From assembly GCF_051657925.1 (NCBI RefSeq), contig NZ_JBOFLP010000155.1:43954-107953 (forward strand): a DNA stretch of 64,000 bases. Direction: 5' to 3'. The position numbers were made by a program, and so were the translations under genes. The stretch comes from Chroococcidiopsis sp. GTDB taxonomy: Bacteria; Cyanobacteriota; Cyanobacteriia; Cyanobacteriales; Chroococcidiopsidaceae. Positions 33,162 through 55,400 of the stretch are shown piece by piece. The notes under the pieces are model-generated. The model was not told the origin of the DNA. It worked only from the letters and a program-made list of their open reading frames with translations, and did not search any database. The number at the start of each line of letters is the position of its first letter. The stretch's first letter is position 1.

Positions 33162-33598
33162 CCCTGATCCTTAAATATCGGAGCAGGTATCATTGTGCCT
33201 ACGTGCGTTGAATTTGTCAATCAGAAATTATCAATTCTTCCAGTTCTCGAATTTGGTTTAGTTCTTGTCCGGGGATGAGTTCAATCGCGATCGAGGTTTC
33301 GAAGCAGTCCGATCGAGATGCACTTATATAATGTCGTCCTTCTGATTCGAATTCAAAGAAATATACGACTCCGTTAAACCATTTCTTCCCTGCTGCCCCG
33401 TCTGCTATAAATCTCTGCATATTTTAGGCATTAAGACGGACTACGAAAGTATAACCCAAGAGAAATAAAAGAGGAAGTAAGTACTTCCTTCGCTTCCTGC
33501 GTTCAGATACACGGTTTAAGCCAGTTCTTCATTTTAGAAATAAAAATATACAGACACGATAAAACATTGTGTTGACGATCCGTGTGTCTTGAGTCAAA

Positions 33599-33636
33599 TG
33601 CCAGGAACGAGACTTGAACTCGTGACACGAGGATTT
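33599..33636 (-). other. 3' half of cyanobacterial-type tRNA-Phe (att-core-like fragment)
   Basis: Minus strand AAATCCTCGTGTCACGAGTTCAAGTCTCGTTCCTGGCA: anticodon 3' stem, T-arm and acceptor 3' strand. Confidence 0.8.
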
Positions 33637-33692: not shown

Positions 33693-33918
<226 letters not shown>

Positions 33919-34022: not shown

Positions 34023-35246
34023 ATGTTTGCGGGAAGCAATATGGCACGTCTTTCCTATGGTGAGGTTGGGGTCGAAGTTAATCGAGGAAAAATTAGACTT
34101 CGGCTTCCTCGGTATTTAATGGATAAAGGTGTAGAGCGATATATCTATACAGGAATGGATGATAGCCGAGATAATAAATTCAAGGCAGAAACTTTAGCGT
34201 TATCGATGACGGAAGATCTTAGAACAGGGTGTTTCGACCTGTCTCTGACGCGTTATAAAAACGCTCTTAATCCTAGAATCTTCCTCAACAAAAATATCTC
34301 CTCTGCTTTGGATTTAAGGCAACTTTGGACAGATTATGCACTTAGTAGAAAGCGGCAGGTTGCCGGGACTACTTACAAAATGGAGTACGAAACTAAGTTC
34401 CCGAATCATATTAAGCAGCTTCCTACTTTCCACCCTGAAGATGCGATCGCACATCGAGACTACTTGATTGAAAATTTGTCTTTAGGTCAGGCTAGACGAG
34501 TCATTACGCAGTTAAGTGCTTGTTGTGACTGGGCGATGGAAGAAGGAATGATCCATCGCAATCCGTATAAAGGAATGGCAGAAAAAATTAAGGCAAAGAT
34601 ACGAATTCCAGGAGAAGAAGATTCGGAGATAGATCCGTTTTCCGACGCTGAAAGAATAGGTATCGAAAAGGCATTTGAATTCCACGAGGAACATAACCAC
34701 TTTTACCCGTTCATTAGATTCCTGAACTTAACCGGATGTAGACCTTCCGAAGCGATCGGATTGAAAAAGGAAGATATTTTAAGAGGGTTTACCCAAATTA
34801 TTTTCCGCAGATCATATTCGACAAGGGTAGGGATAGAGAAAGACACGAAAAATCACGGAAGCAGAAGATTTCAAGTAAATCAATCCTTAAAAGAACTGCT
34901 GACAGATATAGTGCCTCTCAGAGCCTCAGACGATTATGTAATATTTAAGGCAAAGAAAGGGGGGTATATCCGCCAAAATCAATTTGTTCAGCGTGTTTGG
35001 AAAGGCTACCATCCAGAAGGTAATCCTCACGGAAGGCACTATATCGGGATAACTGAAAGTCTTCTATCGCAAGGGATCATGGAACGATACAGACCTCCAT
35101 ACAATTTGAGGCATACTGCCATCACGCGAATGGTAGAGGAAGGTGTCTCTCTAAATCACATCGCCTACGCGATGGGAAATTCAGCCGCAGTCATTGAAAA
35201 GTACTACATGGGAAGAATCATGAAATTCACCTCCCCATTAGACTGA
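34023..35246 (+). CDS. int: Tyrosine integrase with N-terminal arm-binding domain (type common in cyanobacteria)
   Basis: RGKIRLRLP arm domain; TGCRPSEA, KDTK, PYNLRHT, MGNS, KYY. Confidence 0.92.
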   Translation: MFAGSNMARLSYGEVGVEVNRGKIRLRLPRYLMDKGVERYIYTGMDDSRDNKFKAETLALSMTEDLRTGCFDLSLTRYKNALNPRIFLNKNISSALDLRQLWTDYALSRKRQVAGTTYKMEYETKFPNHIKQLPTFHPEDAIAHRDYLIENLSLGQARRVITQLSACCDWAMEEGMIHRNPYKGMAEKIKAKIRIPGEEDSEIDPFSDAERIGIEKAFEFHEEHNHFYPFIRFLNLTGCRPSEAIGLKKEDILRGFTQIIFRRSYSTRVGIEKDTKNHGSRRFQVNQSLKELLTDIVPLRASDDYVIFKAKKGGYIRQNQFVQRVWKGYHPEGNPHGRHYIGITESLLSQGIMERYRPPYNLRHTAITRMVEEGVSLNHIAYAMGNSAAVIEKYYMGRIMKFTSPLD

Positions 35247-39186: not shown

Positions 39187-39993
39187 TTACTTTAGTTGAT
39201 TTTCCTTGTCTTGTTCTAAGACGTAAACAAAAAAGCAAGCGTCGAAAATTATCGACACACTCTTTGAAGAGAATTCTGATTTGTCGCCGTTAAATTTCTG
39301 CTCTAATAGGACGTAGACAACAAAATCCGAGAACCGTTTGATAGCAGCAATCTCTTCGACTTGGTTCCAAATCACCCGCCTTCCCTTGGCATTATTAGAT
39401 CGGGTCTGTCTCATCCGAGCTGAGATTCGACCTGTAATTTCCTGAGAAAGCTCCTCGCCAGTCGATCGGCTGGATCGGATTATCTCTTGAGCGAGAAGTA
39501 ATGGTTTCAACGCGTTTGTCCGTTCCGGGTTATGGCGTTTTTCAGCTCGATAGAATACCCGATACAGATTTACAAGTTCTTGAGGAATTGCGATCGCGCT
39601 TTTGCTTGATCCGATTGCAGTAGATCTGTTCTGGGTTGCGACTTCCAGTTCGCAATCAAGCCTAGCAAGTCCTAGCGCCTTCTCTGGGGATACCCCAGAT
39701 TCTTCTAAAGATTTCCTCCATTCTTCAGCACTGTCTTTCTGACTCTGAATCTCTGCTTCCTGATACTCCCCGAACCTGGAATACTTCAATGACATCCGAT
39801 CCAGCTCATCTATATCGACACTCTCATGAGTTTCTGTCCAAACGAAATGCATCGCATCGAACATGATCTGGAAGTTTTCTGCGTTTGGCAAATCGTTTAA
39901 TAAAGCTGCAATCGAAGCGATGCACTCCTCGAACGATCGTCCGTTACTCATCACGTCGCAGAACTTTGTCTTAATTTCTTGGTAAGTTACCAT
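39187..39993 (-). CDS. Protein with C-terminal Cas11d-like (Cas10d C-terminal) domain
   Basis: aa 136-268: ELVNLYRVFYRA..LKP..AKGR..EE..AI..F..F.V....F.GD....I.DAC.F.Y.LEQDKE follows the cyanobacterial Cas10d C-terminus as I recall it. Confidence 0.75.
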   Translation of the reverse strand: MVTYQEIKTKFCDVMSNGRSFEECIASIAALLNDLPNAENFQIMFDAMHFVWTETHESVDIDELDRMSLKYSRFGEYQEAEIQSQKDSAEEWRKSLEESGVSPEKALGLARLDCELEVATQNRSTAIGSSKSAIAIPQELVNLYRVFYRAEKRHNPERTNALKPLLLAQEIIRSSRSTGEELSQEITGRISARMRQTRSNNAKGRRVIWNQVEEIAAIKRFSDFVVYVLLEQKFNGDKSEFSSKSVSIIFDACFFVYVLEQDKENQLK

Positions 39994-40016
39994 TAGTTTT
40001 CCTTACTGGCTATACA

Positions 40017-40055
40017 GTTTGCCAGTCCCGTTTACGGGATTATTCACGAATTAAG
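40017..40055 (-). CRISPR. Solitary type I-D-like CRISPR repeat (no array)
   Basis: CTTAATTCGTGAATAATCCCGTAAACGGGACTGGCAAAC resembles I-D repeats (CTT...TAATCCCG-loop-CGGGACTGAAAC). Confidence 0.45.
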
Positions 40056-40084
40056 AATGCAGCAGAACTGCGGCTAGTCAAGAC

Positions 40085-40654
40085 TCAGTTGCCTCCACCG
40101 GAAGGTTCCTTCTTCCATTCTTCGATTCGATCGTCCAGCCATGCGATCGCTTCATCTCTATCGACCATTCCATTAAAAACATCTCCGCATCCGTGTTGAT
40201 CGATAATCTCTTCGGCTGTTTTTCCTTCGATCCAAAGCGGTTTAAGATCGTCCGGGTCAAACCAATCTTCAGCATCCCACCACGAGGCGATGGTATCTGT
40301 ATCTTGGCTACGGACGTAATCAAGAAGCTCTATTCCTTTACTCGACCATCTCCCGATAGGGTTATGTCCATCAAACTCAGAGCCAAGGTACTCTTTCAGC
40401 ATCGCTTCTAATGTATCTTCAATAGATACTACCCAGCTATAGACAGACTGTGCGATCGCTGAAGGATAAACGGTAAGAATCCGCTTGTCTATTCCGTTGT
40501 GGGATTCTTGCGGAATGCCTTGACCGATATCTAGAAAACAATAGACTGTTCCATCTTCTGGATTAAGGTATATATCGGTTTTCCATCCTCCCCAAGAACC
40601 TGAAAAATCTTCTTCCTGGAGTGCTTCGATCGACGCTCGTAGTGATTCGATCAT
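40085..40654 (-). CDS. Acidic Trp-rich hypothetical protein
   Basis: 189-aa ORF in leftward cluster. Confidence 0.65.
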   Translation of the reverse strand: MIESLRASIEALQEEDFSGSWGGWKTDIYLNPEDGTVYCFLDIGQGIPQESHNGIDKRILTVYPSAIAQSVYSWVVSIEDTLEAMLKEYLGSEFDGHNPIGRWSSKGIELLDYVRSQDTDTIASWWDAEDWFDPDDLKPLWIEGKTAEEIIDQHGCGDVFNGMVDRDEAIAWLDDRIEEWKKEPSGGGN

Positions 40655-48955: not shown

Positions 48956-49462
48956 CTATCCTCGCTTACTGTAGATGTGATAGCCTTCCTTTGTCTTGTA
49001 GCAAGAGATCCAGTTAACTTGGGCATCTTCTGCAATAGATTCCCAGTCAATATAAAATTCTAGCCTGCCATCAAAAAAGCCAGTATTTAGGATTTCATCA
49101 GGAAGTTGTACAGCTTCCTGACAGTAGTTTTCTACAGAACCATAAAGCCCTAAATATCGATCGTTAAACTCGGACAGATCTGCATCCTCCCCAAACTCTA
49201 TTAGAAAACCTTTAATCTCTTCCTCCCCATACTGTTCGATCGCATTCACGATCGCGCAGATTTGGGATAAGTCGCTACCATCATAACCCGCTAATCCTTC
49301 ACGATCTTCGATCGTCCATTCTTCTGCCTGGGTCTCAGATAGAAAGTGCTTGATCTGCGTCCTTAGCTTCTTTGGTGTTACGTCAGAGGTTAACGATAAC
49401 CAAGTACCTCTTAGTTGTCCTTGATTGTATCTAGCGATGTCCATCACGTAGATCTTAGACAT
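48956..49462 (-). CDS. ardA: Antirestriction protein ArdA
   Basis: IYV..IARYNQGQLRGTW, EEWTIED.EG, YLG.Y, YIDWE..A.D. Confidence 0.85.
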   Translation of the reverse strand: MSKIYVMDIARYNQGQLRGTWLSLTSDVTPKKLRTQIKHFLSETQAEEWTIEDREGLAGYDGSDLSQICAIVNAIEQYGEEEIKGFLIEFGEDADLSEFNDRYLGLYGSVENYCQEAVQLPDEILNTGFFDGRLEFYIDWESIAEDAQVNWISCYKTKEGYHIYSKRG

Positions 49463-52400: not shown

Positions 52401-55400
52401 CCACTTTGAACAGAGGTAGAACACCGCTATCGATTAACAATCTTGCATCATCATCCATTACTTTACCTCCGATCGCAACTTCTGAAACAATTCGACCGCC
52501 TGTAGAAAGGCGGGGATCTCCTCTACTGCGATCTCATCTAGAATGAGTCTTGCACCCTGATCATTAGAATATTCGATTCTGTAAATAGCAGGGTGATCAA
52601 GTAACGGCTTAAATGCTGCCTTTACCGCTTCTACATCAGAATCATATTTCTCCGTTCTCTGCTTTCGAGAGATGTCTGATCTAAGATCCCCAATCAATTT
52701 CTCTACTTGAAAACGAGAGGCTATTCCCTTAGATTTTTTGTTGGTGCTGGTAATACCCTCACTTCGATTTTCTGAATAGTCAAGGTGCTTTAAGGTAAGT
52801 ACCCATCTCATGCTTATCGCACCTTTAGAATTGCATTCGATTTCCCGTCTTAACGACTGCTCTAAGTCTTCAGGGATCTTGGCGATTTTCGTAATCTCAT
52901 CCAGAACGGTAGACGCCGTAGGATAAGATTCGATCTCAGCAGCTTTACTGTTTATGATGCTAGCGATCGACTCAAGATCAGGGACTCGATACGTTTCTGA
53001 GAAATCAAATCCTTCTACAGAGTAACTATCCCCTAACTTAAGACTTTCAACAGTAAGTAGATGTGCATAGGTAAAACTCTTAGTTACCCTGAACAACACA
53101 CCTTGGATATTTGCCTCAAAACCTAGATCGTTCTCTGCATTACACTCTATAAGGCTATACTTATCTATCATGAACTGCACAGCTTGATCGCGATCTTCAA
53201 TCTTAGGTATTCCGTTAAGAAACGGTGTTTTGAATGTATTTCGAAGGCTAACCCTACTGGAGTAAGGTGTATCGTGTTTAATCATGAGGCTCCTTATTTG
53301 AGGCTAACTTGGTTAAAGCACCTTATTTCTTAGTCTTAACTCTTCTATCAAAATCCGATCGCGTAGTATCTGAATCCCTACCGATTGCCCTAGATAGAAA
53401 GTCTTGTAGAATCGATCGTCTGTTTCTTGTGCTACTTTGTACTGAGCCTCTGACTCAGCTAAAAAAGCATTCAGTACTTCTAGAAGTCGATCCATATTAT
53501 TTATGTTCCCAGACGGTAAACCATATCTTTCGATTTTCGAAATCCCAGTCCATAACATCATTCAAATCCATGATGCTTGCAATATCACATCTAATTTCCT
53601 CACTAAGTACAGCCAAACCAAGATCAAATTTACCGTCAAACACATCGTCTCTAGTATCCCAGGATATCCATTCAGCTTCATTAGATATCTCTTTCCGAAG
53701 AAACGAGAGAGTATCAGACCAGAACTCTGTGTCATGCTCTTCGCTCAATAAAGCCGATCCGTTCTCTATCTCTTTAACTATCGCAGGGATCGGAATGCTA
53801 AGGACGTGAAAGCGATCGGTAAGCTGACTTTCAGGGAAGATCCCGATCAACCTATAGTATGGTTTTGACATAAGAGCCTCTAGTTGAAATCTTTTTCACG
53901 CAAATTCATTAGCCAACTTGGACCTTTAGAGTTTCGTATCTCAGTTAGCGCGATCCTATAGTTATACTCGCAGAAATGAGCATAAGAATATCTCAGCGTA
54001 ACCCATTCACCTGATAGTTTTTGTTTCCATCCCCTAGCATTACCCGTTTTGTCTATATGCTTCTGGCGATAGAAGCAAAGTGCTTTTTTCTGCTGCTCAG
54101 TGAGAACATCTAATCTACTCACGATCGTCTTCCTCCTCCCATTCATAGCACTGCGCTACTTTAGTTTGGATATACGAACAATCGATCCCATCGGAGGAGG
54201 CAAATTTAGGAAATGAACCAAGCCCTGATCCGATCTCTTCCCACAAACCGATCCCGCTTCCTAACGCAGATCCTGCCATCAAGTAGAACACCCCACAGTT
54301 ACTAGGTACATCCTCTATACACTGCTCAAGTGTATAGGTGTTATCCCACTTTTCTACAAATAAATTCACGATCTCAGTGAGAAGCTTCTCAGCGTTAGAT
54401 AGTTCCGTGCTGTAATCCACTTCTAACTCATCTAATTGACCTACCCAGGTTTCGATCACATCTTCTTGCGATCGGTAGAAATCCTTAAAAGGGATTCCAT
54501 AAAGAGGGTGATCTTTATCATCCGTCCCTGACTCTAGATCGAAGTTAGTCTCAATCAGCCACAAAGAGGCATATCGAAAATCATCCTCATTGATCGCTTT
54601 TAGCTCGTCAGTTGTATATGTTTTAGTCATTAGATCTAGTCTCCTATTACGCTGTACCCATCACAGTACTTTGAACTCATCCGAAAAGCTAATCGTTTTA
54701 GACGATGTGAATCGTAATAACTGTATCTTGCATCGTCCCAGCAAGAAATAAGGCAAGAATTCGATCGCTTTAATCTAAGGACAGATTTTCTAATTCGGAA
54801 AAAGCGACTAAAGAACCAACTGGAAAATCGATAGAATCAGACATTACTTAACCCTTCTTTGCTTACAGTAATTTTTCACAAAATGCAATGACTGAGTAAG
54901 ATTTGGAAACGACCAAATCATTAGCGAATCATGATCGAAAACAGCGTACCCGTTAGGGTAGAGTTCAGTCTCTACAAGAGTAGTGCTGAGGTATCTATTC
55001 TTGCATTCTGCAAGGGTAAATCCATGCTCTGCTGCAATATCGTAGACACACTGAAATACTTCGGAATAGGTAAACATTACATAACTCCTTTTTTTGTTGA
55101 TCAACTTACTTATCTAAATGAAACCAAAATTGTACGTCTGTATAATCCCGATCGCTTTCCTCCAAAGACTCGAAATGCGTACATAGCTCTATAATGGCGT
55201 CTAATGCAGCAGAGTATACATTTAACCGATTAAACATCTTTCTAATAAGGTTTACCTCCTTATCACTTACTTCCGCTCTATCAGTTGCCTTGAAAATTGA
55301 ATCGACAATGCTATCTACTAGATCTTCTTCCTCATCGCCTACAAACTCTACAAAACCATCTTCATTTAGATACCCTGACAAGTCAGGAACATGAACACCG

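Follow-up and report, generated by a model that had tools for sequence, protein, structure and literature searches.

A 91-nucleotide (nt) leader on a phage contig carries a degenerate, solitary unit whose likeness to natural type I-D repeats of CRISPR (clustered regularly interspaced short palindromic repeat) systems is beyond chance, and the leader stands directly ahead of a stand-alone gene for a Cas11d homologue. The DNA in question, called the window here, is the whole stretch of 64,000 nt that was analysed, positions 43954-107953 of contig C155 (NZ_JBOFLP010000155.1). On sequence comparison, the element is well supported, both statistically and comparatively, as repeat-derived and as linked to the Cas11d-like gene. 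We propose, with a probability of about 0.5, that it is a repeat-derived docking or cutting site for Cas6d that travels with a putative anti-I-D protein and acts as a decoy, as an mRNA-processing signal, or as both. Binding and cleavage by Cas6d, and any effect on immunity or expression, are what we infer from the comparisons below.

A repeat-like unit ahead of a Cas11d-like gene

The likeness was measured as the best local alignment score against 40 natural I-D repeats, the same statistic being computed on random genome pieces (12,000 controls for 100 nt). Natural repeats were gathered from arrays downstream of cas10d in 35 genomes of the same cyanobacterial order as the metagenome-assembled genome (MAG) with which the contig was binned; I-D was present in 66 of the 151 genomes sampled from that order. 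The window leader reached a score of 17 (p=0.0008 per 100 nt, p=0.002 per 400 nt), a value attained by 0 of 1248 other 400-nt pieces of the 126-kb phage, of which the leader is the single best site. The closest partner of the unit is a Myxacorys repeat (L180), with 27 of 35 columns in agreement (77% identity). The majority of the collected repeats are T-A-closed and end in ..AATCCCT-NNN-AGGGATTGAAAC; the G-C-closed class, ending in ..AATCCCG-N4-5-CGGGACTGAAAC, is a minority next to cas10d (G114, G120, G155) and also forms arrays in G029, Phormidesmis, Myxacorys and Coleofasciculus. An earlier note on this DNA, made from its letters alone, had likened the unit to a Synechocystis-type repeat. 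That class does exist, in arrays beside cas10d in related cyanobacteria (for example CTTTCTATCAACTAATCCCGGCGCTCGGGACTGAAAC in L112), and the unit does carry, relative to this G-C-closed class, the 2-nt handle insertion that the note described. A contig scan with the 15-base stem pattern over 596 Gb, where about 4,400 chance matches were expected, yielded three cyanobacterial repeats of use among the matches listed.

The unit occupies positions 40055-40017 of the minus strand, its 3' end 23 nt ahead of the ATG at 39993, with sequence and position exactly as first described. Stop codons close all three frames across it, and it is intergenic, lying in a 91-nt gap of a circular phage contig. It is also solitary, again as had been claimed: no second copy of its 26-nt core with up to 3 mismatches was found in the window (0 expected in shuffles), its stem pattern has a single occurrence in the 6.0-Mb assembly, and no repeat lies within 100 bp, the only nearby signal being an unrelated 16-bit Rfam match. 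A first hairpin (hairpin 1), CCCG-UAAA-CGGG, is present in both the minimum-energy fold and the centroid. In the I-D system of Synechocystis, Cas6-1 cuts between G29 and A30 provided that the hairpin is stably formed, and the products carry a 3' handle of 29 nt and a 5' handle of 8 nt (PMC5741207, PMC10212523); Cas6-1 and Cas6-2a cross-cut similar hairpins in vitro (PMC5741207). By analogy, a cut in hairpin 1 would fall between G 40027 and A 40026 (unit positions 29 and 30). Like the cyanobacterial I-D repeats that serve as Cas6-1/Cas6d substrates (PMC5741207, PMC10212523), the unit has 29 nt before this position, a CCC/GGG hairpin core, TAAT before the stem and ACUG after it. Unlike them, it is 39 instead of 37 nt long, has a 4-nt loop and a handle of 10 instead of 8 nt, and stands as a single copy with no spacer, the RNA downstream being mRNA. 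In place of the 8-nt 5' handle A(C/U)UGAAAC, in which U32, G33, A34, A35, A36 and C37 are invariant across 35 natural I-D repeats, it has ACUGGCAAAC.

The earlier note had also taken the downstream gene for a Cas11d relative, and it proved to be a true homologue. Its 268-amino-acid (aa) product aligns with positions 811-944 of the 946-position TIGR03174 model (Cas10d/Csc3; E=2e-12), and a profile built from 13 homologues finds the PDB Cas11d chain 7SBA_J (E=4.9e-6) and also the Cas10d C-terminus. The AlphaFold model (predicted local distance difference test, pLDDT, 88) has 7sba_J as its top Foldseek match, with a TM-score of 0.76 (normalised to 7sba_J) and a root-mean-square deviation of 2.2 A over 139 columns. 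For the 120 N-terminal residues, which are helical, there was no match. Judged from profiles and model together, the label "Cas11d-like" is sound; that the protein acts as an anti-I-D anti-CRISPR (Acr) or decoy is a role that we infer. Stand-alone homologues at 46-56% identity occur in metagenomes and on IMG/VR contigs. Short stand-alone open reading frames (ORFs) of 145-189 aa that hold the Cas11d part alone were also seen (L282:2983-3420, and in L263, L265 and L268), one of them on a 134-kb viral contig.

Leaders of homologous genes and a proposed course of processing

Upstream DNA was read for 23 distinct loci of homologous genes, and 400 nt upstream of each gene were scored. On the sense strand, p was at most 0.002 in 6 of the 23 regions, which represent 5 independent groups (window, L051, L281, L249 and L038/L279), where about 0.05 were expected. 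Scores of at least 17 were reached 6 times in sense and 0 times in antisense, the antisense maximum being 15. The window leader fits the G-C-closed class, and the other leaders follow other natural repeat variants: L051 (ACTCCTAATCCCTTTCAGGG) agrees with the G173 repeat (ACCCCTAATCCCTTTCAGGG) at 19/20 positions, L281 (CTAATCCCTATCAGGG) likewise has 19/20 positions matching, and the L038 and L279 leaders match the G067 repeat over 23-26 nt. In each repeat-like leader the matches take in the non-palindromic 5' flank and the hairpin and stop at GGG, and the 5' handle is unconserved in L037, L051, L281 and L038. The genes upstream of the window element and of the L037 element are unrelated to each other, so the repeat-like element goes with the Cas11d-like gene.

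In four leaders that have otherwise diverged beyond alignment (group A: window, L037, L051 and L281), TAATCCC and GGG are invariant, which implies purifying selection, and both keep a fixed distance to a second hairpin (hairpin 2) and to the ribosome-binding site. Hairpin 2 begins in all four at the first base past GGG and ends before the ribosome-binding site; in the window, as the earlier note had seen, ACUGGC pairs in the minimum-energy fold with a GCCAGU just 5' of AAGGA. The loop of hairpin 2 is unconserved; at two of its base pairs both partners have been exchanged (A-U/G-C, G-C/U-A). Hairpin 1 is kept in sequence and hairpin 2 in structure only, as would be expected if a protein recognised the first hairpin and the second were a structural element. 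The conserved part ends at the Cas6 cut site, which makes a handle-dependent RNA anti-CRISPR (Racr) less likely than a Cas6-hairpin decoy or processing site.

We picture the unit as a degenerate solitary repeat of the I-D class, in sense orientation, in the mRNA leader of a putative anti-I-D decoy gene. The portion kept would be the 29-nt 3' handle, that is, the 5' flank and hairpin that Cas6d recognises, ending at the cut position. Where the host has an I-D (or related Cas6) system that matches, Cas6d would bind this hairpin and probably cut after ...CGGG. The upstream fragment would retain the hairpin and sequester Cas6d as a Racr-like decoy, and the downstream fragment would be a Cas11d-like mRNA whose 5' end forms a stem-loop (hairpin 2) immediately ahead of the ribosome-binding site. 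The cut would free this mRNA from a long early transcript and may stabilise it.

Table 1. Positions of the leader, its parts and selected genes in the window
Feature	Positions	Strand	Basis
Intergenic leader, 91 nt, between an acidic 189-aa ORF (40085-40654, -) and the Cas11d-like gene	39994..40084	-	ORF list, sequence
Degenerate solitary type I-D-like repeat unit, 39 nt, CTTAATTCGTGAATAATCCCGTAAACGGGACTGGCAAAC	40017..40055	-	Local alignment score 17, uniqueness
Hairpin 1, (U)CCCG-UAAA-CGGG(A), putative Cas6-type recognition hairpin	40026..40039	-	Predicted folds
Hairpin 2, ACUGGC-N10-GCCAGU; first base is the base after the inferred cut, end at the ribosome-binding site	40005..40026	-	Predicted folds
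Shine-Dalgarno AAGGA, 6 nt ahead of ATG	40000..40004	-	Sequence; unpaired P=0.65 in predicted ensemble
Weak promoter-like TTGACT-N16-CATTCT, overlapping terminator-like hairpin 40059-40071	40054..40081	-	Sequence
Stand-alone Cas11d-like gene, 268 aa: helical N-terminal half without match and Cas11d-fold C-terminal half	39187..39993	-	Profiles, model
ArdA antirestriction protein, same leftward cluster as the Cas11d-like gene	48956-49462	-	Pfam E=2.4e-19

Of the promoter that the earlier note had read at 40081-40054, both hexamers are present; the second is poor, and a promoter scan did not return the site. The overlapping hairpin, GCAGTTCTGCTGC with a T-rich tail, was given as terminator-like by a scan. 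A 7-bp long-range pairing, GUCUUGA/UUAAGAC (40078-40084 with 39970-39976, minus strand), encloses the leader and start codon in the minimum-energy fold and may be chance.

Other repeat material and other hairpins were met at the homologous loci. L242 has a real array of at least three G-C-closed repeats (L242:17-198, minus strand) about 1 kb from its Cas11d-like gene (L242:865-2086, plus strand); between the two, directly upstream of the gene, lies an XRE-type helix-turn-helix (HTH) gene, possibly making this a phage-borne array with an aca-like regulator. L279 has a clean solitary I-D repeat, AAUCCCUACCAGGGAUUGAAA (L279:5832-5852, minus strand), 2.8 kb from the Cas11d-like gene, which a covariance model of I-D repeats (R1) scores at 23.8 bits (E=0.007). 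Flanked by two terminator-like hairpins on a 208-kb IMG/VR contig, it looks like a textbook Racr candidate. Two repeat-like units, set 43 nt apart, are found in the operon leader of L038:3655-3750 and L279:2630-2730. A promoter-like TTGACG-N17-GAAGAT stands ahead of them, an 84-aa ORF and the Cas11d-like gene follow, and the layout recalls viral Cracr mini-arrays with short guides. At 100-400 nt ahead of the Cas11d-like gene, L249 (~1430-1480) and L250 (~890-940) show a perfect palindrome with 16-bp arms, one of which contains the I-D repeat core CCTATCAGGGATT. A different leader hairpin, CCGGG-A[GT]TAGCG-CCCGG, stands about 20-60 nt before the start codon in L043, L052/L242, L244, L245 and L247, with a compensatory change between L052 and L043. 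An upstream hairpin in L035 was set aside, as it lies inside a small zinc-ribbon ORF.

Canonical I-D solitary repeat units (SRUs) occur in 24 IMG/VR stretches as near-perfect repeats unlike the window unit, and in the reciprocal test that started from them the Cas11d-like gene was found on the L279 contig only. A common solitary I-D repeat, ..CTTAATCCCTACTAGGGATTGAAAC, sits between long inverted repeats in L283-L285, L287, L289, L291, L293, L296 and L305 and suggests a dispersed SRU-bearing element. A further I-D repeat in a phage mRNA leader, this one canonical and solitary, is found at L290:9909-9929 (minus strand), where it precedes a 159-aa ORF by 39 nt.

Formal repeat tests, host match and rival accounts

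A number of results weigh against a repeat-derived Cas6d site. No CRISPR-DR family of Rfam was found at the leader site, whether at the gathering threshold or at E<=10; R1, built from 31 I-D repeats, gave 10 window matches at E<=10, the leader site not among them, and neither was it among the 521 assembly matches of an nhmmer profile of I-D repeats. SRUFinder asks of blastn-short for minimum values of 90% identity, 90% coverage and 41.1 bits (PMC10651486). The best match of the unit to the 40 locally collected I-D repeats stays below all three, spanning 19 nt (51% coverage) at 22.3 bits and with an identity of 89.5%. In IMG/VR, no close relative of this exact element was found. The comparison with I-D repeats that the earlier note had called for has thus come out divided, with a local alignment beyond chance and a failure in each formal repeat or SRU test that was run. 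Repeats of the T-A-closed class prevail in R1 and the nhmmer profile, which were built from 31-35 repeats and put a heavy penalty on the handle insertion, and it was for this reason that the plain local-alignment test was added. The handle itself is a further difficulty, interrupted by 2 nt and half buried in hairpin 2 (6/10 bases paired). A formal covariation count on three aligned leaders (window, L037 and L051) was not significant; it was underpowered, and MAFFT had shifted one arm. Conservation of the repeat together with the gene, also foreseen in the earlier note, is far above chance in 6/23 upstream regions, but about three quarters of the homologous loci are without a repeat-like leader, one group having a different conserved hairpin and another a promoter only.

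Some further matches were rejected as candidates. One in the window (54480-54496) falls within an ORF, and a single match in the same-genus genome G003 is within coding sequence and so was taken as chance. The IMG/VR scan with the G-C-closed pattern gave one array and two probable chance singles, with no Cas11d-like gene nearby; one IMG/VR single shares the GC insertion, yet sits in GC-rich, apparently coding DNA.

The host comparison adds to the points on the opposing side. Neither cas10d nor cas1 was found in the MAG assembly, and its array is a decayed four-repeat orphan of the T-A-closed class (C197, ~19.5-19.8 kb, minus strand; GTTGAAATTTAATTGCCTCCCTATTAGGGATTGAAAC and worn copies, found by nhmmer). 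Genomes of the same genus have arrays of 19-65 T-A-closed repeats and no G-C-closed ones, and the hairpin variant of the window unit differs from the repeats of the genus with which the phage was binned. The G-C-closed class, here with a 4-nt loop, is present alongside cas10d fragments in G014, a genome of the same family. Comparison of 1987 spacers (from about 40 I-D arrays) with the phage gave only 13-26-nt chance matches, and because these are at chance level no host is assigned.

The element could be an ordinary conserved leader feature with no relation to CRISPR and a coincidental likeness to I-D repeats: it might stabilise the mRNA, be processed by a host RNase or serve as a palindromic DNA operator for an anti-CRISPR-associated (Aca)-like repressor. 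Such an account would fit the failure of the formal repeat models to find the unit and the different, covarying CCGGG-A[GT]TAGCG-CCCGG hairpin of other homologues; in L245 similar palindromes overlap a perfect TTGACA-N17-TATAAT promoter in the manner of an operator, an XRE-type HTH gene precedes the L242 homologue, and the fold of the whole 100-nt window leader is unexceptional (z=-1.4). However, upstream of this gene family repeat-like matches are in large, strand-specific excess, and they reach into the non-palindromic flank and track different natural repeat variants. Moreover, the neighbouring gene is itself a homologue of an I-D protein, so that an I-D repeat is the mimic to be expected a priori. 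We regard coincidence as unlikely.

We are equally doubtful that the unit is a relic without function, the last, decayed remnant of a mini-array on the phage or of a solitary repeat that once flanked the Cas11d-like gene. Homologues do adjoin an intact array (L242) or have an intact solitary repeat nearby (L279), the window copy is degenerate, with its handle insertion and its 77% identity to the nearest repeat, and a decaying array exists in the host MAG too. Decay, however, would not be expected to leave TAATCCC and GGG invariant at a fixed spacing in four diverged leaders, nor to stop, every time, exactly where Cas6 cuts.

The earlier note had considered a handle-dependent Racr, in which the processed unit would recruit Cas5d and Cas7d through its handle into aberrant Cascade sub-complexes. 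Racrs beside acr genes are known (PMC10651486) and the window copy keeps ACUG..AAAC, but the 2-nt insertion interrupts this handle, the pairing in hairpin 2 takes up 6/10 of its bases, the SRUFinder-type thresholds are missed, and the RNA past the handle is a ribosome-binding site and a coding region. The handle is unconserved in L037, L051, L281 and L038 as well, which speaks against assembly of Cas5d and Cas7d on the downstream RNA. We think this version of the idea quite improbable.

Control of translation by Cas6d cleavage, the other suggestion of the earlier note, found in-silico support in relatives and none in the window leader. In L051 and L281 the 5' flank of the repeat is predicted to pair with the Shine-Dalgarno (fold z-scores -2.9 and -3.4), and the predicted probability of an unpaired Shine-Dalgarno would rise on a cut at GGG, in L051 from 0.18 to 0.65 and in L281 from 0.05 to 0.48. 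No such masking is predicted in L037. In the window the probability is 0.65 before and 0.76 after the cut, and a forced UUCUUA/UAAGGA pairing costs +2.1 kcal/mol. A translational switch is, on these fold predictions, a lead for the relatives L051 and L281 and not for the window copy. One could also imagine a phage sensor of Cas6, made by placing the 29-nt Cas6-binding portion of an I-D repeat in the leader of an anti-I-D gene, in which the cut by host Cas6d would strip the anti-Shine-Dalgarno flank (L051, L281) and leave a stable, hairpin-capped mRNA (the four group-A leaders) as well as a hairpin that soaks up Cas6d, so that the Cas11d mimic would be made mainly where I-D is active. This is a speculative reading, and a rather improbable one; if true, the leader would be a natural riboregulator that responds to Cas6 and is coupled to a Cas-subunit decoy. 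That the 5' flank masks the ribosome-binding site of the window itself until Cas6d cuts is very doubtful, for all the predicted masking and post-cut unmasking in L051 and L281, as the site is already mostly open there, the forced pairing is unfavourable and L037 is likewise without masking.

Genomic context and relation to known systems

C155 is the longest of 382 contigs in a cyanobacterial MAG that is 89% complete (6.0-Mb assembly). Because its ends overlap by 139 nt, the contig is circular, with a total of ~126.4 kb. It encodes a ribonucleotide reductase, a family-A DNA polymerase, a DnaB-like ATPase, a thymidylate synthase and an integrase. By this gene content it is the genome of a phage that was binned with the MAG. 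The leftward cluster around the Cas11d-like gene also includes ArdA, an HD hydrolase and DUF932. The G+C content is 0.455 in the phage and 0.446 in the MAG. The phage tRNA-Phe is 86% identical over 76 nt to the MAG tRNA-Phe on C206, and upstream of it an inverted copy of the 3' half is 91% identical to the MAG tRNA-Phe over 44 nt; the window positions of the two are 33593-33636 and 33760-33834. Both matches adjoin the integrase gene (34023-35246), and identity in the tRNA-Phe region is 85-91% overall. The similar G+C content and the tRNA-Phe match are consistent with a host in the MAG lineage and are no proof of it.

Engineered Csy4 (Cas6f) hairpins are used in synthetic biology to cut 5' leaders off mRNAs, leaving a defined mRNA 5' end. 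The leader described here resembles these in placing a Cas6-type hairpin in a leader, although those are artificial by design; we know of no described natural phage version of such a leader that relies on the host Cas6.

The racr and acr genes of other systems cluster and can be co-transcribed (PMC10651486). As in RacrIC1-AcrIC5 and other racr-acr loci (Camara-Wilpert et al. 2023, PMC10651486), a solitary repeat-like phage unit would here adjoin, or be co-transcribed with, a protein against the same subtype, and the decoy idea, based on a repeat hairpin that binds the processing nuclease, is shared with them. However, the window unit lies upstream, in the 5' leader of its gene, whereas the RacrIC1-type unit lies 11 nt downstream. 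Unlike the units of racr-acr loci, it is far more diverged, below SRUFinder-type thresholds, and has a conserved second hairpin at the cut site; its partner is a homologue of a Cas subunit and not a described Acr. Like RacrIF1 and viral SRUs (PMC10651486), the unit is intergenic, solitary and on a mobile element. The functional RacrIF1 RNA runs from its start to the Cas6f cut site and comprises flank and hairpin without the 5' handle (PMC10651486), which is the part conserved in the window unit; RacrIF1 differs in being a separate small RNA with its own strong promoter, where the window has only a weak promoter-like site. Viral Cracr mini-arrays (bioRxiv 10.1101/2024.10.29.618823) likewise link a repeat-derived RNA genetically to an anti-CRISPR protein gene, here a putative one. 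Cracr needs two units flanking a short guide, however, and the window has one unit alone, so that the two-unit leader of L038/L279 comes closer.

The arrangement sets out no new principle, since RNA anti-CRISPRs with acr neighbours have been described (PMC10651486) and IMG/VR contains canonical I-D solitary repeats. A single anti-CRISPR, AcrID1 of an archaeal virus, was known for type I-D at the time of a 2023 review. The cassette of a Cas11d look-alike and a piece of an I-D repeat is a candidate counter-defence against bacterial I-D systems. It also suggests that repeat mimics far under the current thresholds of SRU searches can be found by anchoring the search on a neighbouring gene. If Cas6d really cuts these leaders, they would be a natural case of a phage that exploits a CRISPR nuclease of its host to process, or switch on, its own mRNA.
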